DNA from: Caulobacter sp.
GTDB lineage: Bacteria; Pseudomonadota; Alphaproteobacteria; Caulobacterales; Caulobacteraceae
Assembly (NCBI RefSeq): GCF_965279145.1
Contig: NZ_OZ257139.1
Location: 4,011,571-4,075,570, forward strand
Direction: 5' to 3'
Length of the DNA: 64,000 nucleotides
The notes below the pieces were generated by a model. The model had not been told where the DNA came from. It saw only the letters and a program-made list of their open reading frames with translations, and did no database searches. Shown here piece by piece: positions 33,959 to 53,195 of this stretch. The position numbers were made by a program, and so were the translations under genes. How positions within the stretch are numbered: the first letter of the stretch is position 1; each line of letters begins with the position of its first letter.

Positions 33959-33971
33959 AACTTTCGTAACC

Positions 33972-35199: not shown

Positions 35200-35251
35200 C
35201 GAATTTGGCCCCTTGTGGGTCTGCGCGCACTTGCGCGTCGGTCTCGGTGAG

Positions 35252-35280
35252 TAGTCGCCGCCGCGGATGCGATTGGATGC
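35252..35280 (-). promoter_or_regulatory. Putative ECF promoter P2 (GCATCC-N17-CGACTA)
   Basis: Both hexamers and the spacing are identical to the site at 35530-35558. Confidence 0.65.
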
Positions 35281-35301
35281 GGACGGCGGAATTATTTCGG
35301 T

Positions 35302-35484
35302 CTAGCGCCGGCCCAGCCTGGCGATCAGTTCCGCCGGCGGCTCGCGGCCATTGCTGGCAAAAGTCCGCAGAACATCGGCGGCGTCGCGATCGGCGCAATA
35401 GGACAGCCAGTTGCGCCACGCGCCGATCACGATCCAGCTCGTCGGAAACACCAGCCACCAGAATGAGGAAAACAGATCTTCCAC
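35302..35484 (-). CDS. 60-aa truncated paralogue of the 34774-35199 protein
   Basis: MEDLFSSFWWLVFPTSW..NGREPPAELIARL aligns with MEDLFRSYWWLIFPLSW..SGREPPPELVARL. GGAGGG SD upstream. Confidence 0.7.
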   Translation of the reverse strand: MEDLFSSFWWLVFPTSWIVIGAWRNWLSYCADRDAADVLRTFASNGREPPAELIARLGRR

Positions 35485-35528
35485 GACAATCCCTCCAGCG
35501 AACGCGAGCCTCTCGCGCCTTCTGAAGA

Positions 35529-36194: not shown

Positions 36195-36314
36195 GCGATG
36201 GTTTCCTGCGCTCTTCGTGTTCAAATGGACGAGACTAGTCGCAATAGCCCTGCTCGCCCCTGCTTGTCGCCCTAAAGTCGGCCGACTCGCGCTTTCAGCA
36301 AAGCTGCTAGGCCT

Positions 36315-36671
36315 TCAGGCCGCCTTTTGGAACAGGCGGGCATAGACTTCCGGCTTGAAGCCCGCAGTCAGCTTGCCGTCCACGTCAAGCATCGGCCGCT
36401 TGATCATCGAGGGCTGGGCCAGCATCAGGGCGACAGCCTTGTCGGCGTTCAGGTCTTGCCTGTCCGCGTCAGCCAGTTTGCGAAACGTGGTCCCCGCTCG
36501 GTTCAGCACGGTTTCCCAGCCCAGCGCCTCGACCCACCGCTCCAGGCTGGCGGCATCGATCCCGGCGACCTTGTAGTCATGGAAGCGATAGTCAACGCCG
36601 TGCTCGTCGAGCCAGGCGCGGGCCTTCTTCATCGTGTCGCACGCCTTGATGCCGTAGATGGTGACGCTCAA
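36315..36671 (-). CDS. ArsC/YffB (Spx/MgsR-like) family reductase
   Basis: IYGIKACDTMKKA, LNRAGTTFR, PSMIKRP. Confidence 0.92.
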   Translation of the reverse strand: MSVTIYGIKACDTMKKARAWLDEHGVDYRFHDYKVAGIDAASLERWVEALGWETVLNRAGTTFRKLADADRQDLNADKAVALMLAQPSMIKRPMLDVDGKLTAGFKPEVYARLFQKAA

Positions 36672-36730
36672 CGCCCTGCCCCCGGTTGACTGAGCCGCGA
36701 CGGGTAGCGCCCGGCCAGCCAGGGCGCAAG

Positions 36731-37297
36731 TCAGTCGGCCAACGGATAACGGGCCAGCACCTCGTGCCGCCCCTGGCCCTGATGGCTGACCACCAAGGCA
36801 AACTCCCGGACGGTCCAGGTCACCGGCTCGATGGGCGTCACAACGGCGCCAGGCTGTCCGTACAGAACCGTTACGTGCGGCGTGAACGCCAGATTGGCGC
36901 TATCCAGCTTCTCCCAGGCCAGGGCCTGGCGCAGCCCGGCCTGAAAGGCTTCCAGAGCGCCAAGCCCCTCGCCGCCGCGCAGCACGACATTCCTTGGAAA
37001 TCCGCCGATCTGGTCGAACGCAACCTCGAACGGTGCGACGTCCAGCCGCCTGGCGGCCCGCGATATCCTGTCGATCAGGCTTTGAGGCACCTGATCCCAA
37101 TAGTCGAAATGCCCGAGCGTGATGTGCATCAGATCGGGATTGAAGACCGCCCCGCCAAGCTGATGATCCGCCTGATAGCGTCGCCCCGCGGCCCGCGCGG
37201 CGACCCGAGCCTGCTGATCCAGGTAGATCATCAGGATCAGGTGCTTGTCGCGCGGCGCGGCCTCGAAGCCCAGCAGCGAGAGCTGTTCCGCGGCCAT
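36731..37297 (-). CDS. 2H phosphoesterase (RNA 2',3'-cyclic phosphodiesterase / 2'-5' RNA ligase family)
   Basis: Two HxT motifs (HITL, PHVTV); C-terminal V.EFALVVSHQGQGRHEVLARYPL. Confidence 0.85.
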   Translation of the reverse strand: MAAEQLSLLGFEAAPRDKHLILMIYLDQQARVAARAAGRRYQADHQLGGAVFNPDLMHITLGHFDYWDQVPQSLIDRISRAARRLDVAPFEVAFDQIGGFPRNVVLRGGEGLGALEAFQAGLRQALAWEKLDSANLAFTPHVTVLYGQPGAVVTPIEPVTWTVREFALVVSHQGQGRHEVLARYPLAD

Positions 37298-37301
37298 CGT
37301 C

Positions 37302-37640
37302 TCAACCCTTGGCCAGATTGCTCCGCAGGCGGTCGGCGACCGCGCCCAAGGTGATCGCCGAGAGCGCTTCCTCGATGACCAGACGGTCCTCGGTCGAGGC
37401 GATCTGGGCGATGCGGTGGGTGAAGTCGGTCACCGCCGTGATATGCTGGGCCAGAAGATCGACCATGTGCAGTTCCTGCATCACGCGGGCCTGCTGTTCA
37501 GGCGGCGCGGCCTGAAGCATCTGCCCCAGCGCGTCGTCCAGCTTGCCGCAGGCTTCCGCCGCGATCGACATCTCCGCCGACACCGCCGCCAGAATCGCGG
37601 CCGTGCTCGAACCCGCCGTGCTGTCCTGTTCCGAATTCAT
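37302..37640 (-). CDS. Hypothetical helical protein
   Basis: 112 aa, all-alpha pattern, GGGGAA SD-like site; 4 nt from the next gene. Confidence 0.65.
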   Translation of the reverse strand: MNSEQDSTAGSSTAAILAAVSAEMSIAAEACGKLDDALGQMLQAAPPEQQARVMQELHMVDLLAQHITAVTDFTHRIAQIASTEDRLVIEEALSAITLGAVADRLRSNLAKG

Positions 37641-37841
37641 GCTTCCCCCGACGTCTCGTCTGCGGTGTCTTTGTGATTGGCCGGCGCGACAAAGCGCGAC
37701 CGTCGCGCGCAGGTTGGAGTGATCCCACGCCTCACCGCAAGCCTGTTTACGCAGGGGCGCCGAATAGCGGACTCGGAACGGGTTCCGTTTCTTATCGCCA
37801 AAGGAGCCGAACGATCGGCAAACTAGGGGCCGAAACCAGCC

Positions 37842-39005
37842 CTAGAAGGACTTGGGCATGCCCAGCACGTGGGTGGCCACGTGGCTGAGGATCAGGTTGG
37901 TCGAGATGGGCGCCACCTGATAGAGGCGGGTCTCGCGGAACTTACGCTCGATGTCGTACTCCTCGGCGAACCCGAACCCGCCATGGGTCTGCAGGCAGGT
38001 GTCACCCGCCGCCCATGAGGCCTCGGAGGCCAGCAGCTTGCCCATATTGGCCTCCGACCCGCAGGGCCGACCCGCGTCGAACAGGGCCGCGGCGCGTTGC
38101 ACCATCAGTTCGGCGGCGGCGATCTGCACATGCGCTCGGGCGATGGGGAACTGCACGCCCTGGTTCTGGCCGATGGGACGCCCGAACACCTCGCGGTCAC
38201 GGGCATAGGCGCTGGCGCGGTCCACGAAGAACTTGCCGTCGCCGATACATTCCGAGGCGATCAGGATTCTCTCCGCGTTCATGCCGTCAAGAATGTAGCG
38301 AAAGCCCTGCCCCTCCACCCCGATCAGGTTCTCGGCGGGAACGCGCAGATTCTCGAAGAAGAGTTCCGTGGTGGCGTGATTGAGCATGGTGCGCACGGGA
38401 CGGATGGTCAGCCCCTGCCCGACGGCTTCCCGAAGATCGACCAGCAGAACGCTCATGCCGTCGCTGGACTTGGCGGCCTGATCGCGCGGGGTGGTGCGGA
38501 CCAGAAGGATCATCAGGTCGGAATGCTCGGCCCGCGAGATCCACAGCTTCTGGCCGTTCACCACATAGGCGTCGCCGTCGAGGCGCGCCGTCGTGGCGAT
38601 GCGGGTCGTGTCGGTTCCCGCCCCAGGCTCCGTGACGCCGAACGCCTGCAGTCGCAGTTCGCCCGTGGCGATCCTGGGCAGGTATTGCGCCTTCTGGGCC
38701 TGGCTTCCATGCTTGAGCAGGGTGCCCATGGTGTACATCTGGGCGTGACAGGCGCCGCCGTTGCAGCCCGAGCGATGCACCTCTTCCAGGATGGCGATCG
38801 CCGCGCCCAGGCCAAGACCCGACCCGCCATAGGCTTCCGGGATCAGCACCGACAGGAAACCCGCTTCGGTCAGGGCCTGCACGAACCGGGTCGGATAGGT
38901 GCGATCCCGGTCAAGAGCCTGCCAGTAGGTTCCAGGAAACTGTGCGCACAGCCTGCGCACCGACTCGCGGATCTCCGGAAAGCTCTCGTCTGTAATGCTG
39001 GACAT
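37842..39005 (-). CDS. Acyl-CoA dehydrogenase
   Basis: FGVTEPGAGTDT, NGQKLWISR, GMNAERILIA, THGGFGFAEEY. Start placed at ATG 39005. Confidence 0.94.
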   Translation of the reverse strand: MSSITDESFPEIRESVRRLCAQFPGTYWQALDRDRTYPTRFVQALTEAGFLSVLIPEAYGGSGLGLGAAIAILEEVHRSGCNGGACHAQMYTMGTLLKHGSQAQKAQYLPRIATGELRLQAFGVTEPGAGTDTTRIATTARLDGDAYVVNGQKLWISRAEHSDLMILLVRTTPRDQAAKSSDGMSVLLVDLREAVGQGLTIRPVRTMLNHATTELFFENLRVPAENLIGVEGQGFRYILDGMNAERILIASECIGDGKFFVDRASAYARDREVFGRPIGQNQGVQFPIARAHVQIAAAELMVQRAAALFDAGRPCGSEANMGKLLASEASWAAGDTCLQTHGGFGFAEEYDIERKFRETRLYQVAPISTNLILSHVATHVLGMPKSF

Positions 39006-39141
39006 GCGGACTCCTCGATGTGGCCAGCCTGCCTCGCCCCCCCGGCCAAGGCGCAAAGCCTTTCGCAGAGCTAATCCAGTGACGTTGGGTCAAAGCAAAC
39101 GGGCGCTGGACGGCGGACGGTAATTTTCGTCGAATAGGCAC

Positions 39142-39963
39142 ATGTCGCCCGAAGATCTTGAAACTTGGCGTCGCCACGTCGGTCGCAGCGAAGTCCGTCG
39201 CCAGGTGCTGGATGTCGAGACGGTGCGTCGTTTCGCGGCGGCCGTCGACTGCGACCTGGATGTCGAGCGACGGCTTCCGCCACTGGCCCACTGGGCCTTC
39301 TTCCTGGACGCTGCCAGGGCGGAGGATCTCGGCCCCGACGGCCACCCCCGGCGGGGAAAAGGACTGCTGCCGCCGGTCAGTCTGCCGCGACGCATGTTCG
39401 CCGCCAGCGCCATGCGTTTCGAGGCGTCGATGACCCTGGGCCTCCCGGCCGAATTGAGGCTCACGATCGCGGCTGTTCAGCACCGGGCGGGCAAGTCGGG
39501 CGATCTGGTGTTCGTCGAGGTCGACCGGGTCCTCACCCAGGACGGTCACGCTTGCGTGACCGAGCGCCAGACCCTCGTCTATCGCGATGCCGGCGACAGC
39601 ACGCCGGCGATCGTCCCGATCGAGACACTCCCGAACGACGGGGGCGAGATGTGGACGCCCGGGCCAGCCGACCTGTTCCGGTTCTCGGCCGTGACCTTCA
39701 ACGCCCATCGCATCCACTACGATCTGCCCTATGCGCGGGACGAGGAAGGCTATCCTGGCCTTGTCGTGCATGGCCCGTTCACGGCCGTGAAGCTAGCCTC
39801 CCTGGCCGCGCGGGAACAGCCGCTTAAGACCTTCTCATTCCGGGCTGTCGCGCCGTTGTTCGCGGATCAACCCGTGCGGCTGTCGCCCGGAAGTGCGCCC
39901 GGCGTCTATGAGGCGATCCGTTGCGATGGCGTGGTCGCCATGTCGGCCAGGGCCGAGACCTAG
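39142..39963 (+). CDS. Double hot-dog hydratase (MaoC/HTD2; mesaconyl-C4-CoA/itaconyl-CoA hydratase-like)
   Basis: LGPDGHP, RRMFAAS, FRFSAVTFNAHRIHYD, LVVHGP. Confidence 0.88.
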   Translation: MSPEDLETWRRHVGRSEVRRQVLDVETVRRFAAAVDCDLDVERRLPPLAHWAFFLDAARAEDLGPDGHPRRGKGLLPPVSLPRRMFAASAMRFEASMTLGLPAELRLTIAAVQHRAGKSGDLVFVEVDRVLTQDGHACVTERQTLVYRDAGDSTPAIVPIETLPNDGGEMWTPGPADLFRFSAVTFNAHRIHYDLPYARDEEGYPGLVVHGPFTAVKLASLAAREQPLKTFSFRAVAPLFADQPVRLSPGSAPGVYEAIRCDGVVAMSARAET

Positions 39964-40595
39964 ATCCGGCGTTCCAGGCCCTGGAGCGTGACCGCGCCGA
40001 TGGCCGTCATCAATCGATCCGCGGTAAGGCCCTCCACGGTCGGCGCCCATTTTGTCAGCCAGATCAGCATGCCCAGCAGCAGTTGCACCACCAGAGCCGC
40101 CTCGCAGCGCACGATCGAGCCGTCCGCCATGCCCTGATTCAGGAGCTGTTCCAGCAGCCCGCTGAGACGAGCGCTCCAGGCGTCCAGATCGTCCCGCTGG
40201 GGTTTCTCAAGATAGGAATAGTCGCCGAAATAGAGCTGCGGCCCGTTTCGGGCGGAGTCATGCAGCAGGTTCTCGAGGAAGCGCCGCAGCTTTGCGGCCC
40301 CGGTCCCGCCCGCATGGTCAGCCTCATCCAGGATCTGCTCGAAGCGTTCGAGGGAGCTGAGGTGGCAGGCATAGACCAGCGCCTGCTTGTTCGGGAAATA
40401 GTAGTAGAGGGCCGCGTCGCGCAGATCTAGCGTCGCCGCGATCTCGGTCATCGTGGCCTGCGCGAAGCTCTTGGCGTTGATGATCTCGATCGCCGCGCGA
40501 AGAATGGCGTCGCGCTTCTTGGCCGACTTGCGGCTGTGCGACAGCGGCTTTTGCCCCTCGACCTGGGCCAGCGCGACAGGGTCTCCGCCCTTCAA
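39960..40595 (-). CDS. TetR family transcriptional regulator
   Basis: ILRAAIEI..TMTEIAATL..ALYYYFPNKQAL HTH. Start uncertain. Confidence 0.9.
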   Translation of the reverse strand: MKGGDPVALAQVEGQKPLSHSRKSAKKRDAILRAAIEIINAKSFAQATMTEIAATLDLRDAALYYYFPNKQALVYACHLSSLERFEQILDEADHAGGTGAAKLRRFLENLLHDSARNGPQLYFGDYSYLEKPQRDDLDAWSARLSGLLEQLLNQGMADGSIVRCEAALVVQLLLGMLIWLTKWAPTVEGLTADRLMTAIGAVTLQGLERRI

Positions 40596-40773
40596 AACAC
40601 CGCGATCCCACTCAAATTTGACAAACCTGTGAAATTATATTGGGCAGTTCCGTAGCGTTAGCAAGGGCTCCGCTAAAAATTCTAACTTGTGTTAAAATAT
40701 CGGAGCCCTACTAAATATTACCCAACCGCGAAGTGTCGAAACAGGCACCGCGAGCTTTGAGGAAACGGCCACC

Positions 40774-43299
40774 ATGCGGAACATCCATTTTCTGAGTGCA
40801 TCTCTTCTCGCGCTGATCGCCTGCGGCCCTGCCCTGGCGCAGGACAAGGCGGCGCAACCCGCTCCCGCCGCATCGACGGCGCTCGACGAGATCATCGTCA
40901 CAGCCACAAAACGCGAGCAGACACTGCAGGACGTTCCGATCTCGGTGTCGGTGACCGGCGCGCTGGCCGTCGAACGGGCCCAGATCCGCGACCTGATCGA
41001 TCTGCAGTCACTGGTGCCCTCGCTGAAGGTTTCCCAGTTCAACTCGGTCGGCCAGACGAACTTCGTCATCCGCGGCTTCGGCAACGGCAACGGCAACGAC
41101 GGCATCGAAAGCTCGGTCGGCGTCTTCATCGATGGCGTCTACCGCTCGCGGTCATCGGCGGCCCTGGACGATCTGCCCGAAGTCGAACGCATCGAAGTCC
41201 TGCGCGGCCCGCAGTCGACCCTATTCGGCAAGAACGTGTCGGCCGGCGCGATCAGCATCGTGACCAAGAAGCCGGAGTTCGAGTTCGGCGGTAAAGCCGA
41301 GGTCAGCCTCGGCAATTTCGGCCTCAAGCAGGTCAAGGGCACGATCACCGGACCGATCAGCGATACGCTGGCCCTCCGCGTCTCGGGCAGCGTGAACAAG
41401 CGCGACGGCTACGCCACCAACGTCATTACGGGCAACGACGTCAATAATCGCGATCGCTGGTCGATGCGCGCAGACGCCCTCTGGCTTCCGAACGACAAGG
41501 CCTCGATCCGCGTGATCGCGGATTACAACAAGATCACCGAGATCTGCTGCGCGGTCGTGTCGCTCCTAAATGGTCCTGCGACCCAGTTCATCGCCGCGCC
41601 CTCTCCGTTCGGCCTGGGCAAGCGCGTCGGCAATCCCGCCAACAAGTTCGACCGCAACGTCTATTTCAACGCCGATCCCAGCAATGCCCTGGTCGGCAAG
41701 GGCGTGTCGGGACAGCTCGACTATGATCTCGGCTTCGGCGCCCTGACCGCGATCACCGCCTATCGCAAGCAGACCAGCGAATCCCTGCAGGACGTCGACT
41801 TCACCGGCGCCGACCTGGCCAACAACGCCCTGGGCAACAACATCAAGACCTTCACCCAGGAACTGCGCCTGGCCTCGAAGAGCGACGGCCCGCTGAACTG
41901 GCTGATCGGCGGCTTCTATCAGAACGAAAAGCTGGCGACGGGCCGGACCATCAGTTTCGGCACCGATATCCGCGCCTATGCCGATGGCCTGAGCGGTCAG
42001 GTTCCGGCGGCCCTGCTGGGCGCCCTGCCCGCAACCCTGCGCCCCGCTCTGACGGGTCGCTCCAACATCTACGCCCTGGAATTCCTGCAAAGCCTCGTCA
42101 CGCCGTCAATCGTTCCGGGTTCGACCTATTTCAAGACCGGACCGGCCATCGACGACTACTATACGATGAAGCAGACGTCCTATTCGCTGTTTGGTCAGGC
42201 CGACTACAAGGTCACCGATCGCCTGACGTTCACCGGCGGTCTGGCCTATCTGAGCGACAAGAAGGACGCAGCATCGAACGTGGTGCTGTACGACGCGTTC
42301 TCGAAACTGAACCTGCAGGCTGTGCCGCAGTTGGCTGCCCTGGGTCTGCCCGGCAACATCTATGGCGCGTTGGGTGGCCTGCAATTCTACTACGGCAACA
42401 CCACCAACCACGGTCCGGTCAACTTCCCGAACGCGACCGAGTCCGGCAAACTGAAGGGCAACAAGGTCACCTACGCGGTTCGTGGCGCCTATGACTTCGG
42501 CCCCGTGAACGCCTATGTCAGCTATTCGACGGGTTGGAAGGCCGGCGCCTTTAACCTGTCGTCGGACAGCCGTCCGCCGAACGCCAACGGCGTGGGCCGC
42601 ACGGCTGCTCCCGAGCTCGTGGACGTTCTGGAAGCTGGCCTGAAGACCAAGTTCCCGGGCGGCTACATGAACCTCGCGGTCTTCGATCAGGCCATCAAGG
42701 GCTTCCAGTCCAACGCCTTTACCGGCCTGGGCTACAGCCTGGTCAACGCCGGTAAGGAGTCGGTGCGCGGTTTCGAAGTCGACAGCGCCTATCGCCCGAC
42801 CTCGTGGCTGGCCCTTACCGGCGCCGTCACCTATCTCGACCCCAAGTACGACTCCTTCGCCGGTGCGGCCTGCGTGAACTACGACACGGTCCGTTGCCCG
42901 GTGAACCCGCTGACCGGTACGCGGCCCAACTTCCGCAACCTGACGGGCGACAAGCCGGCCGGCATCCCGACCTGGAGCGTTTCGACCTCCGCGACCTTCA
43001 CGCACGACTTTGGCAACGGGTACAACGGTTATCTGCGGGCCGAATATGACTATACCAGCGACACTCAGCTGACCGAGACGACCCCGCCGAACCTGTCGAC
43101 CTGGGGCTCCAACAACGTCAACGCCAGCCTCGGCGTCACCAGCGCCGAACACCAGCTGGAAGCGATGCTGTGGGTTCGTAACATCACGAAGGACGATAGC
43201 CTGATATCGACCTTCCCGACCGTGGCCCAGGATGGCAGCTATAGCGGCTATCCGAGCGCGCCACGCACCTACGGCGTGACCCTGCGCAAGACGTTCTGA
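40774..43299 (+). CDS. TonB-dependent outer-membrane receptor
   Basis: Signal peptide, EIIVTATKRE, IEVLRGPQSTLFGKN..GAI, C-terminal PRTYGVTLRKTF. Confidence 0.94.
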   Translation: MRNIHFLSASLLALIACGPALAQDKAAQPAPAASTALDEIIVTATKREQTLQDVPISVSVTGALAVERAQIRDLIDLQSLVPSLKVSQFNSVGQTNFVIRGFGNGNGNDGIESSVGVFIDGVYRSRSSAALDDLPEVERIEVLRGPQSTLFGKNVSAGAISIVTKKPEFEFGGKAEVSLGNFGLKQVKGTITGPISDTLALRVSGSVNKRDGYATNVITGNDVNNRDRWSMRADALWLPNDKASIRVIADYNKITEICCAVVSLLNGPATQFIAAPSPFGLGKRVGNPANKFDRNVYFNADPSNALVGKGVSGQLDYDLGFGALTAITAYRKQTSESLQDVDFTGADLANNALGNNIKTFTQELRLASKSDGPLNWLIGGFYQNEKLATGRTISFGTDIRAYADGLSGQVPAALLGALPATLRPALTGRSNIYALEFLQSLVTPSIVPGSTYFKTGPAIDDYYTMKQTSYSLFGQADYKVTDRLTFTGGLAYLSDKKDAASNVVLYDAFSKLNLQAVPQLAALGLPGNIYGALGGLQFYYGNTTNHGPVNFPNATESGKLKGNKVTYAVRGAYDFGPVNAYVSYSTGWKAGAFNLSSDSRPPNANGVGRTAAPELVDVLEAGLKTKFPGGYMNLAVFDQAIKGFQSNAFTGLGYSLVNAGKESVRGFEVDSAYRPTSWLALTGAVTYLDPKYDSFAGAACVNYDTVRCPVNPLTGTRPNFRNLTGDKPAGIPTWSVSTSATFTHDFGNGYNGYLRAEYDYTSDTQLTETTPPNLSTWGSNNVNASLGVTSAEHQLEAMLWVRNITKDDSLISTFPTVAQDGSYSGYPSAPRTYGVTLRKTF

Positions 43300-43501
43300 T
43301 CCAAAGCGCCGCGACCTGCCCCATCCGGCGGTCGCGGCGTCCTTGCCTCCAGGCGACGGAGCCGGGACAGCTCGGGCCGTCGACAAATCTTGTTCCATGG
43401 CCGATATCCGTCGCGCGCTGGCGAATGCGGCGAAGGGTCCGGACGGTGCGCCGGCGATCTCCTCGGCGCGGCGCGTCTTGAGCTTGGGAGCACGGACACA
43501 G

Positions 43502-44116
43502 ATGAGCGACGTAACGGTCAAGCGCCGAAGCCTGCTGGGCGCCGCCGGATTGTGGGCGGCCAGCCCGCTCTACGCCCAGGCGGCCTCGCCCAAGTCCAGG
43601 GTCGCGATCCAGACGGCTCAAGGCTTGATCATCGTCGAGCTGGAAGTCGACAGGGCGCCGATCACCTCGGCCAACTTCCTGCGCTATGTCGACGCCCACA
43701 AATATGATGGCGGCGCGATCTATCGGGCGTCTCGCAAGCGAGGCGTTCCTGGAGCCGGGTCGATCCAGGGCGGCCCCGCGCCGCGTTTCCGACACTTCGC
43801 GCCGATCGCGCACGAGAGCACGCGGACAACTGGCCTCAAGCACAAGACCGGGACCATTTCGATGGCGCGCAATGCGCCGGGCACCGCCACCTCGGACTTC
43901 TTCATCTGCGCCAGCCCCGCGCCCTTCCTGGACGCTCACCCGGGCGCGCCCGGTGACAATCAGGGCTTCGCGGCCTTCGGGACAGTCGTCCAGGGCCTGG
44001 ACGTGGTGCGCAGGATCCTCGCCCTGCCGACAACGGGTACGGCGCTGACGCCCGGCATGAGAGGCGAGATGCTCAACCCGCCCGTTCAGATCGTCAGCAT
44101 GAAGCGCTCGTCCTGA
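43502..44116 (+). CDS. Cyclophilin-type peptidyl-prolyl isomerase with twin-arginine-like leader
   Basis: APITSANFLRYV, IQGG, GTISMAR, ATSDFFI, GFAAFG; KRRSLLG leader from ATG 43502. Confidence 0.87.
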   Translation: MSDVTVKRRSLLGAAGLWAASPLYAQAASPKSRVAIQTAQGLIIVELEVDRAPITSANFLRYVDAHKYDGGAIYRASRKRGVPGAGSIQGGPAPRFRHFAPIAHESTRTTGLKHKTGTISMARNAPGTATSDFFICASPAPFLDAHPGAPGDNQGFAAFGTVVQGLDVVRRILALPTTGTALTPGMRGEMLNPPVQIVSMKRSS

Positions 44117-44318
44117 CGGGCGCCATCCCACTCGATCATCAACGGCTCGGCCCTGCCCAACACACTATTCCCCGCGTCAAACCCCTAGCCAACCGTTCGG
44201 ATCTCCGGCGGCCCTCGACCCAGCGCACTTTGGCGCCGACAGCGCACTGCCCGCGGCCGTCACGGCCACGCAACAATCACGGACTAGAAGGGCGCCGCAG
44301 CACGCCGCGCCGAGTCCG

Positions 44319-44903
44319 ATGACCGCCTTACGCCCGATAGACCGCTGGTTCATTGACGAGGTGCTGCCACACGAGGCGCGCTTCATGAAGGTCGCTCGAC
44401 GGCTTGAGCGCGATATCGACGCCGCTAACGACCTGGTCCAGGAAGCCTATGTTAGGCTCTACGCGATGGACGGCTGGGCCTCGATCACGAGTCCAAGCCA
44501 CTATGTGCTGCGTATGTTGCGCAACATATCGATCGAGCGGCTGCGCCGTTCCAAGATCATCGCGTTCCAGCGCATTTCCGACATCGACGATTCCAACTTC
44601 GTCGACGACGCCCCCTGTCAGTTTCGCGTCGCCGCGGGCAAGGAACTCGTCGCGCGGATCGGGGACGCCTTGGCCGCGATGCCGGAGCGTTGCAGGACCG
44701 TTCTGGTGCGCCGTCGCTTCGACAACCAACCCCCGCGCGAGATCGCCCGAGAACTGGGCATTAGCCTGTCGACCATGGAAAAGCGCCTGGCGCGCGCCGT
44801 GGTGCTGCTGTCGCGCGCGCTAGGGCCGGAAGGGAGCGGCGCGCTCGTTTTCGACGAACCCGAGGAAGACATCGCCTACAGGGACGACGCGACCAACGGC
44901 TGA
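44319..44903 (+). CDS. FecI-like ECF sigma factor
   Basis: DLVQEAYVRL; MPERCRTVL..EIARELGISLSTMEKRLARA; upstream of a FecR-like gene. Confidence 0.9.
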   Translation: MTALRPIDRWFIDEVLPHEARFMKVARRLERDIDAANDLVQEAYVRLYAMDGWASITSPSHYVLRMLRNISIERLRRSKIIAFQRISDIDDSNFVDDAPCQFRVAAGKELVARIGDALAAMPERCRTVLVRRRFDNQPPREIARELGISLSTMEKRLARAVVLLSRALGPEGSGALVFDEPEEDIAYRDDATNG

Positions 44904-44979
44904 AGTCGCACAAATATTTCTCCGTCGCTTGGCGGCTCTTTCCACCTGAAGCATCTTATCTCTTGAACGCCCTCCGCGT

Positions 44980-46002
44980 TTGGTTTCGGGGAGACGTCCC
45001 ATATCTTCGCAAGGCGCATTTCACCAAGATCCAATTGCCGACGAGGCCGCCCAATGGCTCGCGCGGCACGATCTGGGAACTGCAGATTCCGTCCAATTCG
45101 AACAGTGGCGCGCCCGCGATCCAAGGCACGCCATAGCTTTCGCGCGCGCCTCGGCCGCTTGGGAGCGAGTGCGGTCGTGCCAGGACTTCGCGGATGTGGC
45201 GGGACGGCCCGAAGGCGGGCGAAGAGCAGCCGATGAGGCCGTGGCGCCTTCCCGGCGAGGGCTTCTACGCGCGGCGGTCGCCAGCGGCGCGGTCCTGGCG
45301 GTGGGCGGCGGTCTGATCGGCTCGCGAGCCTACGCCTGGAGCGCCGCCAAGACCGATGTGGGCGAGACCAGACTTCTGCGGCTGCCGGACGGCAGCGAGC
45401 TCATTCTCAACACCGACAGCGCCGTCGCCTGGAAGTTCGACCGGGAAACCCGCGCCGTTCGGCTCAAGCGCGGCGAGGTCGCGCTGAACGTCCGTCCCGG
45501 AGCGACCAAGCTTGCGTTGATCAGCGAGGGATTGACCGCCGATCTGTCGGAGGGACGTTTCAACGCGCGGCTGAAAGCCGGAACCCTGAACGTCACGGTC
45601 CTGAGCGGCGTGGCTCAACCGGGTAGCACTTCTGATCCGTCATCCTTGCGTGATGCGGCCGCCAAGGACCAGACCCTGTTGCTGACCGATACGGCGGCGA
45701 GCGTCCGTCCCGTATCAAGCCAGCAGGTCGCCGCGACCCTGGCCTGGCAGGACGGCGAAATCCTGTTCCAGGACGAGCCTCTGACCTCGGCCGTTGAGGA
45801 GTACAACCGCTACCTGTCGGCCAAGATTGTCATCATGGATACAAGCTTGGGCGGTATCCGGGTGGGGGGGCGCTTCACCACGACCAACCCCGCGAGCTTC
45901 CTGGAAGCCTTACGGGAAATCCTGGATATCGATGTACAGACCACGAACGAAAACTATCTTCTGACTAGAAAAAATAATTCCCAAATTTGGCGGCAACTAT
46001 AA
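44980..46002 (+). CDS. FecR family anti-sigma/transducer
   Basis: EAAQWLAR..FEQWRARDPRH, TM, LPDGSELILNTDS, AWQDGEILF, RVGGRF. Start uncertain. Confidence 0.92.
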   Translation: MVSGRRPISSQGAFHQDPIADEAAQWLARHDLGTADSVQFEQWRARDPRHAIAFARASAAWERVRSCQDFADVAGRPEGGRRAADEAVAPSRRGLLRAAVASGAVLAVGGGLIGSRAYAWSAAKTDVGETRLLRLPDGSELILNTDSAVAWKFDRETRAVRLKRGEVALNVRPGATKLALISEGLTADLSEGRFNARLKAGTLNVTVLSGVAQPGSTSDPSSLRDAAAKDQTLLLTDTAASVRPVSSQQVAATLAWQDGEILFQDEPLTSAVEEYNRYLSAKIVIMDTSLGGIRVGGRFTTTNPASFLEALREILDIDVQTTNENYLLTRKNNSQIWRQL

Positions 46003-46061
46003 CGCCAACCGTCTCCCCAATGAGAGCCGATTTTCTTGATCGGAAAAACATTGGGGGTTCC

Positions 46062-49000
46062 ATGTTAAATAGAACAACGCGGCATTACGCGCTCTATGCT
46101 TGCGCTATTTCCACCATTATTTCTCCCATCGCCTTCTCAACACCCGCGCGCGCCGAGACGCGTGAGATTTCAACGATCAATTTCGACATTCCGTCTCAAC
46201 CTCTGCCCAGCGCTTTGAACGCCTACGCGAAGCAGGCCGGGATCCAGATCTTCTTTCCGAGCAAACAGATCGCCACGATCCCGTCCGCGCCGCTCAAGGG
46301 CGCTCTCACCGGCGAGGAAGCCCTGCGTCGCCTGATCGCGGGCAGCGGTCTCGAGGTCGCGCAGCGCTCCGGCGGCACGATCATGCTGCGTCTGGCTCGT
46401 CGTCCGACGCCGACGGCCTCCGCCGACGGCGCGCCGCTTTCGGCGGACACCGCCGAGACGGTAGAGGAGATCATCGTCACCGGCTCGCGTATCGCGCGAG
46501 CGGCGCGGGAAAGCTCCACGGCCGTCTCGACCCTCGGTCGTGACGCGATCGAGGCAAGCGGCGCTTCGGTGCTCGAAGATGTCCTCACGCGCGAGCCGCA
46601 GTTCGCGGGCGGCCAGACGTCGCGCTCCAACAATCCGGGCACGGGCGCGGCCCAGATCGACCTGCGAGGCCTGGGCACGGCGCGCAATCTGGTGCTGGTC
46701 AACGGTCGGCGCTACGTCTTCTTTGGCATCGACCAGGTCACCGACATCAACACGATCCCCTCCGCGCTGGTCGAGCGCGTCGAGGTCGTGACCGGCGGCT
46801 CCTCGGCCGTCTACGGCTCCGACGCAATCGCCGGGGTCACCAACTTCATTCTGCGCAAGGACTTCGAGGGCTTCGAAGCCAAGGCCCAAGTCGGCGGTGC
46901 GACTCGCGGTGATGCACGCAGCGGCAACCTCGACCTGACCTGGGGCGCGAACTTCGCCGAGGATCGCGGCAACATCGTGCTGTCGAGCAACTATTACGAG
47001 CGCGACGGCGTGCGCCAGGCTGCCCGCGCATACTCCAACTTCGCGCTGACCGATGGCGCCGACAGCGCCGGCAAGCCGATCCTGACCGCGCGCGGTTCGC
47101 TGCAATCGCCCAACGGCAGCTTTTCCAACATCCCCTACGGATCGCAGCTCAACGCGGCGAACCTGGCCGGCCTGAAGGTGGCGCTGGCGGCCGCGGGTCT
47201 CTCCAATATCGGCTCGGCGGGCTTCACCTTCGACGGCGCCGGATCGGCGGCGCGTGTCTACAGAGATCCCGCCGACCGCTACAATTTCGCGCCGCTCAAC
47301 TACCTGATCATTCCGGCCAAGCGCTATGGCCTGTCAGGCTTCGGTCATTTCGACATCACCGACAAGATCACCGCCTACAGCGAGTTCGCCTACTATCGCA
47401 GCGAGGTCGACATGCAGCTTGCAGAGAGCAACCTGTCGACGATCCTGCCGATCGGGGTGAACAACCCTTACGTCTCGTCGGCGATTCAGGACGTTTTCCG
47501 CCAGCTCGACATGTCGGAGACCGGCGCCAGCAAGAACGACGGGCTCGTCAACCTGCGCATCGCCCGGCGCTTCCAGGAGTTCGGCGCCCGCCAAGCGCTG
47601 GTCACGCGTGACACCTATCGCGTGGGCGGCGGCGTTCGGGGTTCGCTTCCCGATTTCAACGACACCTTTCTGCGCGACAACAAGTTCGACGTCTCGTACT
47701 TCTATGGTCAGGCCGACAGCGTCACTCATCTGAACAATCTGGTCTCGCTGAGCAAGCTCAAGGCGGGCCTGCTGAGCAGCAACGGCGCCAAGCCGCTGGT
47801 CAATATCTTCGGCGAGGGCGGCATCTCCGCCGAGGCCGTCAAGGCGCTGTCGATCGACACCAGCAACCCCTCGACCAGCCGCCAGCACATCGCCTCGGCC
47901 AATGTCTCCAGCAATCTGCTGGCCCTGCCCGCCGGTCCGTTGGGCGTGGCCTTCGGCCTTGAATGGCGCTCGGCCTACGCTCGCTCGCTGCCCGACGCGG
48001 CCTTGGCCAGCGGCGATGGCGTGGGCTTCGACAGCTTCCTGCCGACCAAGGGCAAGGTGAACGTCTACGAGGCGTTCGGGGAAACGCGCGCGCCAATCCT
48101 GTCGAAGGAGTCGCCCGTCGGTTCGGTCACCGCCAACGGCGGCTTCCGTTTCTCGCATTATGACATCCCGGGCGCCGACAGAGTCTGGACATATCTGGGC
48201 GGCCTGGAATGGGCGCCGATCCAGGATCTGCGTCTGCGCGGACAATCACAGCACGCGGTTCGCGCGCCGAACATCGGCGAGTTGTTCGGCGGTCAGTCGG
48301 CCGACCGTCCGCGGGCCAGCGACCCGTGCGCGGCCGCATCGGCGGCCACGGACGCCAAGCTGCGCGCGCTCTGCGTCGCAACCGGCGTGCCGACCGGCAT
48401 GGTGGGCGACGCCAGCTTGCAAAGCGGCGACCGGCTGGACGTGCTTTACGGCGGCAACCTCGACCTGACCGTCGAGACCTCGGACACCTATAGCCTCGGC
48501 TTCACGCTCACGCCGCGCTTCATTCCGGATCTGTCGGTGTCGGTCGACTATTTCAACATCCAGGTGAAAGACGCGATCGCTCCGCTCGCGGGCGGCGTCA
48601 CCAGCATCTTCAACCTGTGCTACTCGGTGATTCAAGACGCCAACAGCGCGGTCTGCAAGGCGGTGCGCCGCAATCCGGCCGATGGCCGCATCGAGGCGCC
48701 CTACAGCGTGCTCGCGGCGAACACCAACATCGGCAAGCTCAAGACCTCTGGTGTCGACTTCAACCTGGCCTGGAAGACCCCCTTGGGCTTTGGCCTGCTG
48801 AGCGCCGACAGCGCGTTGAACCTCGACCTGCGCGGCACTTGGCTGGAATCATACTCGATCACCCCGGTTCAGGATCTGCGGGATCAGGTGAACGCGTGCG
48901 TCGGCGCCTTTGGCCTGACCTGCGGCGACCCCCGCCCACGCCTGAAGACGGTCGCACGCCTCAGCTGGAACACCGGGCCGTTGTCGCTTCGGCTGCAACA

Positions 49001-49298
49001 TCGCTACATCGGTGAGGTCACGGACGATCGGATCGTGATCCCGCGCCGTCGCGGCGTCGCGGGGCCACCGGAGTCCAGCTTCGCGGCCCCGACGATGGGC
49101 GCGCGCAACTACATCGACATCTCGTTCAACTTCAACGTCCCGGGCGAGCGACTGTCCGTCTACGGCGGGGTCAACAACGTGTTCGATATCGACCCGCCGA
49201 TCGTCGGCGCCTCGCAGCAACAGGCGAACACCTATCCGTCGACCTACGACGCGCTGGGGGCCGAGTACTTCCTTGGCGTCAAGGTGCGCTTCCAGTGA
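46062..49298 (+). CDS. TonB-dependent receptor with N-terminal STN signalling domain
   Basis: FDIPSQPL..AL.AYAKQAGIQIF (STN), EEIIVTGSRI, SAVYGSDAIAGVTNFIL, C-terminal Phe. Start placed at ATG 46062. Confidence 0.93.
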   Translation: MLNRTTRHYALYACAISTIISPIAFSTPARAETREISTINFDIPSQPLPSALNAYAKQAGIQIFFPSKQIATIPSAPLKGALTGEEALRRLIAGSGLEVAQRSGGTIMLRLARRPTPTASADGAPLSADTAETVEEIIVTGSRIARAARESSTAVSTLGRDAIEASGASVLEDVLTREPQFAGGQTSRSNNPGTGAAQIDLRGLGTARNLVLVNGRRYVFFGIDQVTDINTIPSALVERVEVVTGGSSAVYGSDAIAGVTNFILRKDFEGFEAKAQVGGATRGDARSGNLDLTWGANFAEDRGNIVLSSNYYERDGVRQAARAYSNFALTDGADSAGKPILTARGSLQSPNGSFSNIPYGSQLNAANLAGLKVALAAAGLSNIGSAGFTFDGAGSAARVYRDPADRYNFAPLNYLIIPAKRYGLSGFGHFDITDKITAYSEFAYYRSEVDMQLAESNLSTILPIGVNNPYVSSAIQDVFRQLDMSETGASKNDGLVNLRIARRFQEFGARQALVTRDTYRVGGGVRGSLPDFNDTFLRDNKFDVSYFYGQADSVTHLNNLVSLSKLKAGLLSSNGAKPLVNIFGEGGISAEAVKALSIDTSNPSTSRQHIASANVSSNLLALPAGPLGVAFGLEWRSAYARSLPDAALASGDGVGFDSFLPTKGKVNVYEAFGETRAPILSKESPVGSVTANGGFRFSHYDIPGADRVWTYLGGLEWAPIQDLRLRGQSQHAVRAPNIGELFGGQSADRPRASDPCAAASAATDAKLRALCVATGVPTGMVGDASLQSGDRLDVLYGGNLDLTVETSDTYSLGFTLTPRFIPDLSVSVDYFNIQVKDAIAPLAGGVTSIFNLCYSVIQDANSAVCKAVRRNPADGRIEAPYSVLAANTNIGKLKTSGVDFNLAWKTPLGFGLLSADSALNLDLRGTWLESYSITPVQDLRDQVNACVGAFGLTCGDPRPRLKTVARLSWNTGPLSLRLQHRYIGEVTDDRIVIPRRRGVAGPPESSFAAPTMGARNYIDISFNFNVPGERLSVYGGVNNVFDIDPPIVGASQQQANTYPSTYDALGAEYFLGVKVRFQ

Positions 49299-49309
49299 GG
49301 CGGGGCCCG

Positions 49310-50884
49310 ATGACTATCGCGCGTCGCGCCCTCCTTCAGGCCGGCGGTCTGGTGCTGGTCACGGGCCTGTCCGCCGGACCGGTTTGGTCGCAAGGCCTGG
49401 GCGCCGATCCCTTCACCTTGGGCGTGGCTTCCGGTGATCCGGCGCCGGACGGTTTCGTGATCTGGACGCGGCTGGCGAACCGCCCGCTGGAGTTCGGCGG
49501 CGGAATGCCCATGCGCGCCATCCCGGTGCGCTGGGAAGTGTCGGCGGATGAGGGCTTCACCAGGATCGTCGCGTCGGGTGAGACACTCGCGCGCCCGGAA
49601 TTGGGCCACTCGGTTCATGTCGAGATCGGGGGGCTAAAATCCGCGACGCGGTATTGGTACCGGTTCTTCGCGGCCGCGGAGACCAGTCGCGTGGGAACCG
49701 CGCGCTCAGCGCCTGAAGCAGGCGCGCAAGCCGACCGGCTTCGTATCGGCGTAGCTGGCTGCCAGCACTACGAGGCCGGTCTCTACACGGCCTATCGCCA
49801 CCTGAGCGAGGAGTCGGACCTGGACGCGATATTCCACTACGGCGACTATATCTACGAGGGGGCTGCGGGTAAGGGGTGCCCCGTCGCGTGGGGCAGCGCC
49901 GACAAGGGGCGCGTGTGCTTCCGCAAGCACGTGGGCGAAGAACTCTATTCGCTCGACGACTACCGGCGGCGATACGCTCAGTACAAGACCGACCCTGACC
50001 TGCAGGCGGCTCACGCCGCGGCCGCCTTCATCGTCTCGTTTGACGACCACGAGGTCGATAACAACTGGGCCGGCGACGACGACCAAGACGCCACGCCACG
50101 CGAGGTGTTCCGCTTGCGTCGCGCCGCGGCCCTGCAGGCTTGGTACGAGAACATGCCGGTCCGAAGGGCGCAGTTCCCCGCTGGAGGCCATGTGCGCATG
50201 CATCGCAGAATCGACTATGGCGACCTTTTGCGCCTTCATGTCCTCGACACTCGGCAGTACCGCAGTGGCCAGATCTGTGGCGCAAAGGCGCCTGACGGTT
50301 GCCTGCCACTGAACGATCCCAGCCGTCCGAGCATCCTGGGCGAAGGCCAGTCAGTCTGGCTGGAGGAGGGGCTCGGCGGCGAGGCGCGCTGGAACCTGTT
50401 GGCCCAACAGGTAATGGTCATGCCTTTGGCGTATCCCGCCAAGGGCATGACCGGCGGCGCGAATACCGACAGTTGGAGCGGCTATCCCGCTAGTCGCGAA
50501 CGCTTGGTCGCCGCGATACAGTCGCGGGGCCTGACCAATGTGGTGATCGCCACCGGGGACGTGCATCAACACCACGCTGGGGTGCTGCCGGCCCGGGCTG
50601 GCGCGCTGGACAGCGCGGCGGTCGCTACCGAGTTCGTTGCCTCCTCGATCAGTTCCGGCAGCGACGGCTTCATTATGGCCGAGGACTGGAAGGACGTTCC
50701 GGCGAATAATCCCCATTGCCAGCTCTTTGACGCCCGACGCGGCTATCAGATTTTCAATGTCGGACGCGATATCTGGCGCACGGAGGTCAAGGTTGTCGAC
50801 AAGGTCACAGCGCCGGGCGGCGCGCTTTCGACCGTGGCGCAGCTTGTCGTTGATCGCCGCCGCCCCGGATTTTCCTTTGCGTGA
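49310..50884 (+). CDS. phoD: PhoD-family alkaline phosphatase/phosphodiesterase, Tat-exported
   Basis: ARRALL leader; LGVASGDP, GDYIYE, DDHEVDNNW, LDTRQYR, DSWSGY, TGDVH. Confidence 0.93.
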   Translation: MTIARRALLQAGGLVLVTGLSAGPVWSQGLGADPFTLGVASGDPAPDGFVIWTRLANRPLEFGGGMPMRAIPVRWEVSADEGFTRIVASGETLARPELGHSVHVEIGGLKSATRYWYRFFAAAETSRVGTARSAPEAGAQADRLRIGVAGCQHYEAGLYTAYRHLSEESDLDAIFHYGDYIYEGAAGKGCPVAWGSADKGRVCFRKHVGEELYSLDDYRRRYAQYKTDPDLQAAHAAAAFIVSFDDHEVDNNWAGDDDQDATPREVFRLRRAAALQAWYENMPVRRAQFPAGGHVRMHRRIDYGDLLRLHVLDTRQYRSGQICGAKAPDGCLPLNDPSRPSILGEGQSVWLEEGLGGEARWNLLAQQVMVMPLAYPAKGMTGGANTDSWSGYPASRERLVAAIQSRGLTNVVIATGDVHQHHAGVLPARAGALDSAAVATEFVASSISSGSDGFIMAEDWKDVPANNPHCQLFDARRGYQIFNVGRDIWRTEVKVVDKVTAPGGALSTVAQLVVDRRRPGFSFA

Positions 50885-50974
50885 AAGCTGGCAGGTTCAT
50901 GCGATCGCGCGGACCTTGATTGGCGATAGTGCGATCAGCGACTGTTCGACGCCAACGCCCAAAAGCTCGCCACG

Positions 50975-51155
50975 GCGAAATCAATATGGCGATGATGACG
51001 AAGCCCATGAAGTTGGCGAGCAGCTTGTCATGGCGGGTGGCGACGCGGCGGAGGTGCTTGAGTTTGTTGAAGAAGCGTTCAACGCGATTGCGCTCTTTGT
51101 GGACGTCGGTGTCTTAGGCGTGCTGGACGCGACGGTTGCGCTTGGGCGGAATGAC
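50975..51155 (-). pseudogene. IS5-family transposase C-terminal remnant
   Basis: - strand reads VIPPKRNRRVQHA*DTDVHKERNRVERFFNKLKHLRRVATRHDKLLANFMGFV, with an in-frame TAA at 51114-51116. Left end approximate. Confidence 0.85.
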
Positions 51156-51528
51156 TAGCGCGGCTCCAGCTTGCGGCATGGCGTTGCGGAGTCGGTCTGC
51201 GCCTTGTCGAGCCACTTATTGGCCCACTCTCCATACGTTCTGGCGTCTTGCAGCTTGGCCATGGCACGCCGCTTGTCGATAATGGGCGAACGCCCTTCCC
51301 GGACCTCCTTGCGAGCGGCCATCGCCAGTTCCCGAGCCCTCACCAGAGTGATGACATCTGGCCCGTACCGGCCCAGAGTCAGGCTCTGGCGGCGACCGTT
51401 CATCCGGTAGCCGAGGCGGAACGAGATCGCTCCAGCCGGAGAGACGGTGACGTAAATGCCGTCACGGTCGCGACCTCGTGGATTTTATCACGGGGTTTCA
51501 GGGACTTGAGCTTGCTGTCGCTCAACAC
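51155..51528 (-). pseudogene. P4-like tyrosine integrase, N-terminal arm-binding fragment
   Basis: GTG 51528: MLSDSKLKSLKPRDKIHEV, a 1-nt frameshift near 51470, then DRDGIYVTVSPAGAISFRLGYRMNGRRQSLTLGRYG. Truncated after about 124 codons; no catalytic domain. Confidence 0.88.
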
Positions 51529-51635
51529 TGACGGTCTCCGGCTGGCCCTGAAAGCGGCCGAAAGCGCGCGAAAACGCCGTCAGCCCTAAAGCCAAACGAA
51601 GAGCGCGCCGGCGATAGCCCCGAAACGACGCCCCG

Positions 51636-53195
51636 TCATTCCCACTCGATCGTGCCGGGCGGCTTGCTCGTCACGTCATAGACGACGCGGTTGACGCCCC
51701 GGACTTCATTGATGATGCGGGTGGCGGTCTTGCCCAGCACGTCCCAGGGGAACTCGAAGAAGTCGGCGGTCATGCCGTCGGTCGAGGTCACGGCACGCAG
51801 GGCCAGGACGTTCTCGTAGGTGCGGGCGTCGCCCATCACGCCGACGGTCTTGACCGGCAGCAGCACCGCGAAGGCCTGCCAGATCTTGTCGTAGAGACCC
51901 GCCTCGCGGATGGCTTCCAGATAGATGGCGTCGGCCTGCTGCAGCACCGCGACCTTCTCGGGCGTGATGTCGCCAGGGATGCGGATGGCCAGACCCGGAC
52001 CCGGGAACGGATGGCGTCCCACGAAAGCCGGAGCCAGGCCCAGTTCGACGCCCAGGGCGCGGACCTCGTCCTTGAACAGCTCGCGCAGCGGCTCGACCAG
52101 CTTCAGCTTCATGAAGTCAGGCAGACCGCCCACATTGTGGTGGCTCTTGATCACCGCCGAGGGGCCGCCGCGCGCCGAGACGCTCTCGACCACGTCCGGA
52201 TAGAGCGTGCCCTGGGCCAGGAAGTCGGCGCCGTCGATCTTGGCGGCTTCGCGGTCGAAGATGTCGATGAACTTGCCGCCGATGATCTTGCGCTTGGTCT
52301 CCGGGTCGCTGACCCCGGCGAGGGCGCCCAGGAACTCGGCCCCGGCGTCCACATGGACCAGCGGAATATTGTAGTGGTCGCGGAACAGGGTGACGACCTG
52401 CTCGGCCTCGTTGTGGCGCAGCAGGCCGGTGTCGACGAACACGCAGGTCAGCTGGTCGCCGATGGCTTCGTGGATCAGCACGGCGGCCACCGAGCTGTCG
52501 ACGCCGCCCGACAGGCCGCAGATCACCTTGCCGGTTCCGACCTGGGCGCGGATCTTCTCGACCATCTCCTGCCGGAACGCGGCCATGGTCCAGTCGCCGC
52601 GCAGACCGGCGAGCTTGAGGAAGTTGCGATAGACCTGTGTGCCGTTGACGGTGTGGACCACCTCGGGGTGGAACTGCACCGCATAGATCTTGCGGGCGTC
52701 GTCGGCGATGGCCGCGAAGGGCGCGCCGTTCGAGGTGGCGATCACCTCGAAGCCGTCCGGGATGGCGGTGACGCGGTCGCCGTGGCTCATCCAGACGGTT
52801 TCCAGCTCGCCGACGCCGGCCAGGCCTTCGAACAGCGGACTGGTCTTGCCGATGGTCAGCTCGGCGCGACCGAACTCGCCGGCGTGGCCGCCCTCGACCT
52901 TGCCGCCCAGCACGTCGCACAGCAGTTGCTGGCCGTAGCAGATGGCCAGCAGCGGCACGCCCAGCTCGAACAGCTTCTTGCCGATGCGGGGGCTGTCGGC
53001 TTCCAACACGCTGGCGGGGCCGCCCGACAGGATGATCGCCGAAGGGGCGTAGTCATCGACAATGGCCTCGGCCTTGTCGAACGGATGGATCTCGCAATAG
53101 ACGCCCGCCTCGCGCACCCGGCGGGCGATGAGCTGGGTCACCTGGCTGCCGAAATCAACGATCAGAACGCGCTGGTGATGGACGGGGGCGGTCAT
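51636..53195 (-). CDS. guaA: GMP synthase (glutamine-hydrolysing)
   Basis: [43 protein letters not shown]. Confidence 0.98.

Follow-up and report, generated by a model that had tools for sequence, protein, structure and literature searches.

Why should the last codons of guaA be repeated, letter for letter, just beyond a cyclophilin gene several genes away? The question arises in a window of 64,000 nt from the genome of a Caulobacter sp. (G000, 4.48 Mb; coordinates below are those of the whole window unless a genome is named). Our analysis indicates, with good though not complete confidence, that window positions 44126-51647 (7.5 kb) are the immobile remnant of an integrative island of the GIsul2 family that had inserted at guaA. 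Read from left to right, this remnant consists of a distal core, a cassette of genes for a FecI-type sigma factor, FecR, a TonB-dependent transducer and PhoD, the tail of an IS5-family insertion sequence (IS), an integrase stump, a shortened proximal arm, and a core within guaA. A guaA-targeted island that is now immobile is also what the initial annotation of this DNA had proposed, and a distal 19-mer, a break in synteny with the relative G130 and the integrase stump all agree with it. We compared the window with 126 other genomes of the genus (codes G0xx and G1xx; loci L0xx), among which G130 is the nearest relative found, at about 92% nucleotide identity to the window. Genes in the window were assigned by Pfam domain matches, and IS5 comparisons were made by tblastx and DNA alignment.

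The 12-mer TCCCACTCGATC occurs exactly at 44126-44137 and at 51640-51651, both on the plus strand, and just three times across the 4.48-Mb genome. The copy at 51640 covers the guaA codons Ile-Glu-Trp and part of the final Glu; the other lies between the cyclophilin and FecI genes, at the same coordinates that had been reported before. GIsul2, a 15-kb integrative mobilisable island found in Shigella, in Acinetobacter pAB3 and in IncC ARI-B, occupies the guaA 3' end, where it integrates at 5'-GAGTGGGA-3' (PMC9376610). The earlier remark that integrases aiming at a core in the guaA 3' end are already established is borne out by the description of this GAGTGGGA core. On the guaA side the window contains the following elements.

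51636 to 53195, minus strand: guaA (GMP synthase), the intact target gene, with Pfam GATase and GMP_synt_C; the protein ends ..IEWE-stop.
51640 to 51647, plus strand: proximal attachment (att) core TCCCACTC in the last guaA codons, the reverse complement of GAGTGGGA.
51530 to 51639, minus strand: proximal island arm, from integrase to guaA, about 108 nt, by alignment with five intact islands.
51200 to 51529, minus strand: integrase stump, arm-DNA-binding domain only (Pfam Arm-DNA-bind_3).

We explicitly see at this end that the insertion lies at GAGTGGGA in the guaA 3' end and that island DNA completes the gene: the proximal arm provides the TGA stop of guaA and the last base of its final Glu codon. 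The stop reads TCA in the window, as it does in island arms, whereas the native stop of G130 reads CTA; counted from the stop codon, guaA itself is 91% identical to that of G130 at the nucleotide level. The start of the arm is nearly identical to that of intact islands of the genus in G124, G004, G119 and G050 (GAGTGGGA(A/G)TGACGGGGCGTCGTTTC.GGGCTATCG), with which the remnant also shares the integrase subfamily, the TGACGG repeats and an identical distal 19-mer. Between guaA and the integrase the arms of intact islands measure 310-330 nt (five islands aligned), so that the window arm is short by about 200 nt. In six other islands this arm holds four to six TGACGG/CCGTCA motifs per 330 nt, where about 0.3 would be expected, and the words CTGACGG and CCGTCAG, noted earlier at 51528 and 51577 as possible arm sites, are indeed present and are members of this arm-enriched set.

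The family of the island can be read from its integrase. The stump corresponds to the first 116 or so of about 418 residues; its start codon is the GTG at 51527-51529, about 106-108 nt past the guaA stop (108 nt in the initial annotation), and alignment to intact relatives places its frameshift at about 51469, in keeping with the earlier estimate of near 51470. Over 96 aa the stump shares 74% identity with an intact integrase of 418 aa that lies beside guaA in G124 and that carries the Pfam domains Arm-DNA-bind_3, Phage_int_M and Phage_integrase. An integrase of this family is present in 31 of the 126 other genomes and adjoins guaA in each of the 10 in which both positions are known. The G124 integrase is in turn 55.9% identical, over 95% of its length, to an integrase on a plasmid of A. 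baumannii ATCC 17978, and because the neighbours of the latter are alpA, repA, repC, trbJKL, ars, a recombinase-family gene, ISVsa3 and sul2, we identify it as that of GIsul2. The remnant therefore resembles GIsul2 in having an integrase that is homologous as judged from the intact relative of the stump, in using the same end of guaA and the same 8-bp core, and in the placement of the integrase beside guaA and read away from it. The single-base frameshift in the stump could be an assembly error, since the assembly is 100% identical to a metagenome contig, and in a truncated gene it is of no consequence. Broken copies of the guaA-adjacent integrase are also found in G002 (contig C19, 20936-22253), G119 (C1, 163449-164654) and G068 (C103), either as two pieces with a TGA or with single in-frame stops; since other members of the genus carry such copies, decay of the integrase in place is recurrent.

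Is the copy at 44126 truly the other end of the island? Two features meet there.

43343 to 44116, plus strand: cyclophilin-type peptidyl-prolyl isomerase (Pfam Pro_isomerase), chromosomal left flank outside the island.
44126 to 44144, plus strand: distal att junction, consisting of the core TCCCACTC at 44126-44133 and then 11 nt of island arm, GATCATCAACG.

Initially we favoured a chance repeat at 44126. On that account only the stump and the proximal arm stem from the island, whose remainder has been deleted together with the distal att site, and the cassette is ordinary chromosomal DNA. Chance repeats of this kind are not hard to find. At 14 control loci in relatives, 11-13-mers shared by chance between the guaA end and upstream DNA are common, and the window holds a second 12-mer at 23892. 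Moreover, a core copy at 40606, which we considered as a second att scar and rejected, is demonstrably due to chance: it lies in the divergent intergenic region of a TetR gene and a TonB-dependent receptor (TBDR) gene, and the 21-mer around it is found only in G130, which reads TCCCGCTC in the orthologous intergenic region.

What overturned the chance repeat was the sequence beyond the 12-mer, as found at the distal junctions of G124 and G004, together with the synteny break in G130. In the window the guaA-derived 12-mer is followed by seven arm nucleotides (ATCAACG), where guaA itself continues GTGCCGG, and the resulting 19-mer, TCCCACTCGATCATCAACG, is found exactly at the distal junctions of intact guaA islands in G004, G050, G119 and G124, and with one mismatch in G031, G037 and G046. 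These junctions were located by a pattern search for a stop codon plus core in genomes with intact integrases. In relatives every occurrence of the 19-mer is bordered externally by a stop codon plus a pyrimidine (Y) and internally by an AT-rich arm that carries CCGTCAAAA motifs; after the core, G124 and G004 read GATCATCAACGAG... and the window reads GATCATCAACGGC.... The integrases of the islands with the 19-mer are 72-94% identical to that of G124, in the upper part of the range for the genus (59-94%). For the seven bases past the 12-mer to agree with the start of the arm in intact islands of the same integrase subfamily, we estimate a chance of about 1e-4. That a search of this type discriminates is indicated by the control at 40606, whose 21-mer matches only the collinear G130. 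The window holds, in other words, a second direct copy of the core joined to a distal arm, and no orphan distal site (stop plus core) was found elsewhere in G000.

The comparison with G130 places the end of the chromosomal flank almost exactly at this copy. G130 is collinear with window 30822-44109 at 92.6% nucleotide identity, through the genes for an acyl-CoA dehydrogenase, a dehydratase, TetR, the TBDR and the cyclophilin; possible further homology reaches GGGCGC, a few bases past the cyclophilin stop, and ends within about 3 nt of the 44126 core (at about 44123). Homology restarts at window position 51638, the guaA stop codon. In G130 the interval from the cyclophilin gene to guaA is taken up by 27.4 kb of unrelated DNA with a normal GC content, and there is a single core, at guaA, in the native flank CTAT; neither an integrase of this family nor a close PhoD homologue was found in G130. 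The initial annotation had named two results that would speak against an island: cargo inherited vertically in relatives that lack the integrase, and a junction away from the 12-mer. Instead, G130 has neither integrase nor cassette, and its homology ends within about 3 nt of 44126. Conserved backbone shared with G010, G018 and G124 stops farther left, near 37.8 kb. We also tried the 3' flank of the cyclophilin gene as a conserved marker, and found it uninformative, as the flanks of the cyclophilin homologues all differ. An exact protein look-up for strains of the species itself recovered just this genome, at 100% identity.

Several observations weigh against the reading as an island remnant. 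Beyond 44144 the similarity of the presumed distal arm to intact arms is at chance level, a point tempered by the distal arms of G124 and G004, which are also barely alike. The outer flank of the 44126 core reads GCCA directly before TCCCACTC, without a stop, 9 nt past the cyclophilin stop. The composition of 40-49 kb is only mildly atypical (82nd-94th percentile), and the composition check that had been proposed is thus not decisive. A search for parent elements through the cargo, also proposed, did not succeed: no intact island carrying this cassette was found among the relatives, and the cassettes with the closest PhoD genes lie in an ordinary chromosomal context, without integrase or guaA. 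The missing stop codon, a composition that is not foreign and a cassette type that is chromosomal elsewhere would all be expected if the repeat at 44126 had arisen by chance. However, the seven matching arm bases, the synteny that breaks within about 3 nt of 44126 and resumes at the guaA stop, and the rarity of the 12-mer in the genome are hard to reconcile with chance, which we now regard as very improbable.

Assuming, then, that 44126-51647 is an island remnant, how did it lose its mobility? The two remaining features on the guaA side bear on this.

51200 to 51209, minus strand: deletion joint between IS5 tail and integrase stump, CGACAAGGC, readable as either parent.
50930 to 51200, minus strand: IS5-family transposase tail, the last 80 or so codons (Pfam DDE_Tnp_1_2), with an uncertain outer end (about 50930).

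Integrase homology reaches down to about 51200 and IS5 homology begins at about 51200-51209. Over the bases in between, CGACAAGGC reads ..KWLDKA in the integrase frame, and the IS5 homologue of G079 reads ADKAYD over the same bases. The junction had previously been placed at the CTAG of 51155-51158. However, the IS5 reading frame crosses this CTAG (Ala-Leu-Val-Ile-Pro-Pro...) and continues up to about 51200 (ADRLRNAMPQAGAALVIPP), and the CTAG merely gives the stop of the out-of-frame integrase open reading frame (ORF). The presence of an IS5 transposase tail with an internal stop, on the other hand, was correctly seen: besides the DDE_Tnp_1_2 match there is an in-frame TAA at 51114-51116, where homologues have Tyr. 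The tail was aligned to the IS copies of G079 and G072, in which the inverted repeats start with CTAGG; its homologues, in other species only, are 76-81% identical. The terminal repeat of the window copy gave no clear match, hence the uncertainty of the outer IS end.

Neither the N-terminal part of the IS5 transposase nor a further copy of this IS was found in the G000 genome, and no copy of the catalytic domain or C-terminus of the integrase exists anywhere in its 4.48 Mb. Because both missing halves are absent from the whole genome, the joint marks a true deletion, and we rejected an inversion or translocation. Since both partners are truncated and share microhomology at the joint, it is not a classic transposase-made adjacent deletion, and its sequence suggests a deletion of the microhomology type. 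Thus the earlier proposal that an IS-mediated deletion removed the mobility genes stands as regards the deletion and falls as regards the IS. Among the ORFs with family matches between the cores, none is an excision or mobilisation gene (alpA/xis, rep, mobilisation, transfer); they encode only the sigma factor, FecR, the TonB transducer, PhoD, the IS5 tail and the integrase stump. Judged by its genes, the remnant is unable to move by itself.

What the deletion left behind is a cassette of four intact genes (44319-50884), as expected from the earlier description of a nutrient-sensing cargo.

44319 to 44903, plus strand: extracytoplasmic function (ECF) sigma factor of FecI type, intact ORF (Pfam Sigma70_r2, Sigma70_r4_2, Sigma70_ECF).
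44980 to 46002, plus strand: FecR-type anti-sigma/signal transducer, intact ORF (Pfam DUF4880, FecR, FecR_C).
45987 to 49298, plus strand: TonB-dependent transducer with N-terminal STN, plug and barrel, intact ORF (Pfam STN, Plug, TonB_dep_Rec_b-barrel).
49295 to 50884, plus strand: PhoD-family phosphodiesterase/alkaline phosphatase, intact ORF (Pfam PhoD_N and PhoD, E = 8e-95).

The co-oriented FecI, FecR (DUF4880) and STN-type TonB transducer genes have the make-up of a cell-surface signalling unit, and from their domains the cassette is probably still working as such a unit and inducing a secreted phosphoesterase. Close PhoD homologues (at least 56% identity) occur in 7 of the 126 other genomes, always in other contexts; the best of them, 78% and 76% identical, lie in cassettes of the order sigma-FecR-TBDR-PhoD, and no PhoD homologue found anywhere exceeds 78%. 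The sigma factor and transducer of the window are only 34% and 28% identical to those beside these closest PhoD genes, so that the partners in the cassette are not co-inherited, which suggests that modules are shuffled within a fixed architecture. The same four-gene order (sigma, FecR, TonB transducer, PhoD) recurs in several genomes (L062, L065, L016 and L017).

Did the cassette arrive with the island, or afterwards? With genuine att junctions, it could still be a late arrival in the integrated island, brought in as an IS5-bounded segment or by recombination with a chromosomal locus. The IS5 tail does abut the PhoD end, the most similar cassettes lie in the chromosome, this cassette is close to the host in GC content and tetranucleotide use, and arm homology between 44145 and the start of FecI is undetectable. 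Yet there is a single IS5 remnant, with no second copy flanking the cassette or elsewhere in the genome, G130 has no cassette anywhere near, and variable, host-like cargo by the distal arm is the usual layout of intact islands. Next to the distal arm each intact island examined has different genes: their translated ORFs, read without a family search, include products resembling a DinB polymerase, an arsenate reductase (with an ACR3-like transporter), an AraC regulator (with a short-chain dehydrogenase) and a cation-efflux protein. As intact islands hold variable genes there, a cassette abutting the distal arm is in a normal cargo position. Furthermore, as the IS5 tail has the distal arm on one side and the integrase stump on the other, the IS was inside the island, and the cassette was island-internal at the time of the deletion. 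Given both sides, we consider a late arrival improbable.

How could an island at guaA have lost the guaA terminus from its outer flank? A stop codon plus Y stands outside the core at 8 of 8 distal junctions of the subfamily and at the distal sites of G011, G007, G008 and G017. In G011 (15-bp repeat, 28-kb island) the outer flank carries the Glu-stop of guaA, and in G007 (13-bp repeat, 13-kb island) it carries the Glu-stop and the native terminator. By contrast, the outer flank at 44126 does not keep the guaA terminus (Glu codon and stop). The initial annotation had cautioned that the bases left of 44126 rebuild no guaA stop, and rightly so, as the frame would read ..IEWDGARQ... Its description of both att sites as readable holds for the two cores, which are recognisable; the proximal arm, however, lacks about 200 nt, and the outer flank with the guaA terminus is lost on the distal side. 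Since DNA shared with G130 abuts the core and the stop plus Y is missing, the native flank was removed in a second event.

For this second event we weighed two accounts. The first is an integrase-independent deletion that ended at the core edge or, in a variant, a first integration by the cyclophilin gene with the guaA-side junction arising later. The region has indeed suffered other non-specific deletions, at the integrase/IS5 joint and in some 200 nt of the arm, and G130 has no obvious TCCC/CCCA pseudo-core at the equivalent position. But the break lies within about 3 nt of the core edge and the core and the arm start are perfectly kept, as strand exchange inside the core predicts, and the GIsul2 integrase is documented to use the reduced secondary sites GGGA and TGGG (PMC9376610). 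We therefore find an integrase-independent origin of the junction doubtful, in either form. The most economical account of the missing flank is most likely integrase-mediated recombination with a reduced secondary site, for which the documented sites of GIsul2 provide a precedent and which could explain the odd left junction. In its specific form, we put forward tentatively that the integrase of the guaA island joined the distal junction to a reduced site by the cyclophilin gene, so that native chromosome was excised and a hybrid junction left behind.

Put together, the remnant probably had the following history. A tyrosine integrase with an arm-binding domain would have inserted the island at the guaA 3' end, in the GAGTGGGA core, where the island arm took over the last base and the stop codon of the gene. 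By the layout of the subfamily, the integrase and a long TGACGG-rich arm would have lain beside guaA and variable cargo at the far end by the distal arm; of this far end, the core, the arm start and the intact cassette of ECF sigma factor, FecR, TonB-dependent transducer and PhoD are kept here. A first loss, in which the deletion is observed and its mechanism proposed, fused integrase codon 116 or so to the last 80 or so codons of an island-internal IS5, with a 9-bp stretch at the joint that fits either parent, and took with it the catalytic domain and all backbone and mobility genes. The frameshift in the stump, the nonsense codon in the IS5 and the loss of about 200 nt of proximal arm, all observed, belong to later decay. 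A second loss removed the native DNA downstream of guaA, and chromosomal DNA shared with G130 now meets the core directly; the loss is again observed, and most likely the integrase recombined the distal junction with a secondary site just past the cyclophilin gene, which would have deleted the intervening chromosome.

How far does the remnant then differ from its relatives? Unlike GIsul2, it resides in an alphaproteobacterium and carries an ECF/FecR/TonB-transducer/PhoD cassette; it has no alpA, rep, trb, resolvase, CR2 or resistance genes, its integrase consists of the arm-binding domain only, and its distal junction is without the guaA terminus. The intact islands of the genus in turn measure 60 to 134 kb where delimited, that is 8-18 times more, and have a full integrase and an arm of 310-330 nt; their distal junctions recreate ..IEWE-stop, and none has this cassette.

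Some further observations concern guaA as an insertion site in the genus. Copies of stop plus core at G004:C1 2619301, 2698893 and 2833073, at G008:C1 4208851 and 4327018 and at G017:C123 102140 and 242263 imply very large guaA islands or tandem arrays, which span 134 kb plus 80 kb (G004), 118 kb (G008) and 140 kb (G017); the native guaA terminator hairpin comes after the outermost copy in the last two genomes. The locus L013 (G007:C36, 1914-15075) is a guaA island of 13.2 kb whose 13-bp repeat includes the stop codon; the DNA outside it is almost the same as the terminator at the empty site of G016. The window stump has no match in this island, and this integrase is not found in G007. Several distal junctions are bordered by something other than native chromosome: outside those of L052 (G124), L054 (G004), L030 (G011) and L060 (G046), the conserved stretch ..GGATGC..ATCCGG..AATGCGGTATTATATTAC stands right before the stop plus core, and in G013 (L003) it adjoins guaA directly. 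This GGATGC/ATCCGG flank looks like the proximal arm of a second guaA-integrating family, present in tandem arrays.

The TetR-TBDR pair of the window (39960-43299) adjoins the dehydratase gene in G000 and G130, separates in G124 and G010 the orthologues of two genes that G000 has as direct neighbours at about 851.3 kb (with no more than some 30 nt, 851,275-851,306, in place of the pair), and has a third context in G002; the module thus shifts its chromosomal position between species, with no visible mobility gene. A tyrosine-type enzyme encoded outside the window, at G000 825,172-826,323, is the only other recombinase detectably related to the guaA integrase (26% identical across about 400 aa); its gene is 13-25 kb away from the site where relatives have this pair. 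Also outside the window, at G000 1,338,708 (plus strand) and 1,361,651 (minus strand), two stretches identical over at least 110 nt lie inverted and 23 kb apart, and may be an IS pair or the bounds of an element.

Taken as a whole, the remnant belongs to an already known island family and is a fairly ordinary genomic fossil with one unusual junction; it does not overturn the current understanding of GIsul2-type islands. It is a case of island domestication, in which the mobility machinery has been deleted and an intact sensing-and-phosphatase cassette is fixed beside an essential gene. The comparison also shows that GIsul2-type integrases, known mainly from gammaproteobacterial resistance islands, lie at this same site in guaA in roughly one in four species of the genus, and that some guaA islands of the genus are arranged in tandem or are longer than 100 kb. 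The hybrid left junction provides a testable case for integrase-driven deletion at a secondary site. If this account is true, GIsul2-type integrases would, besides inserting islands, also prune the host chromosome beside their hotspot, and such pruning would help to account for a guaA flank that is different in nearly all species of the genus.

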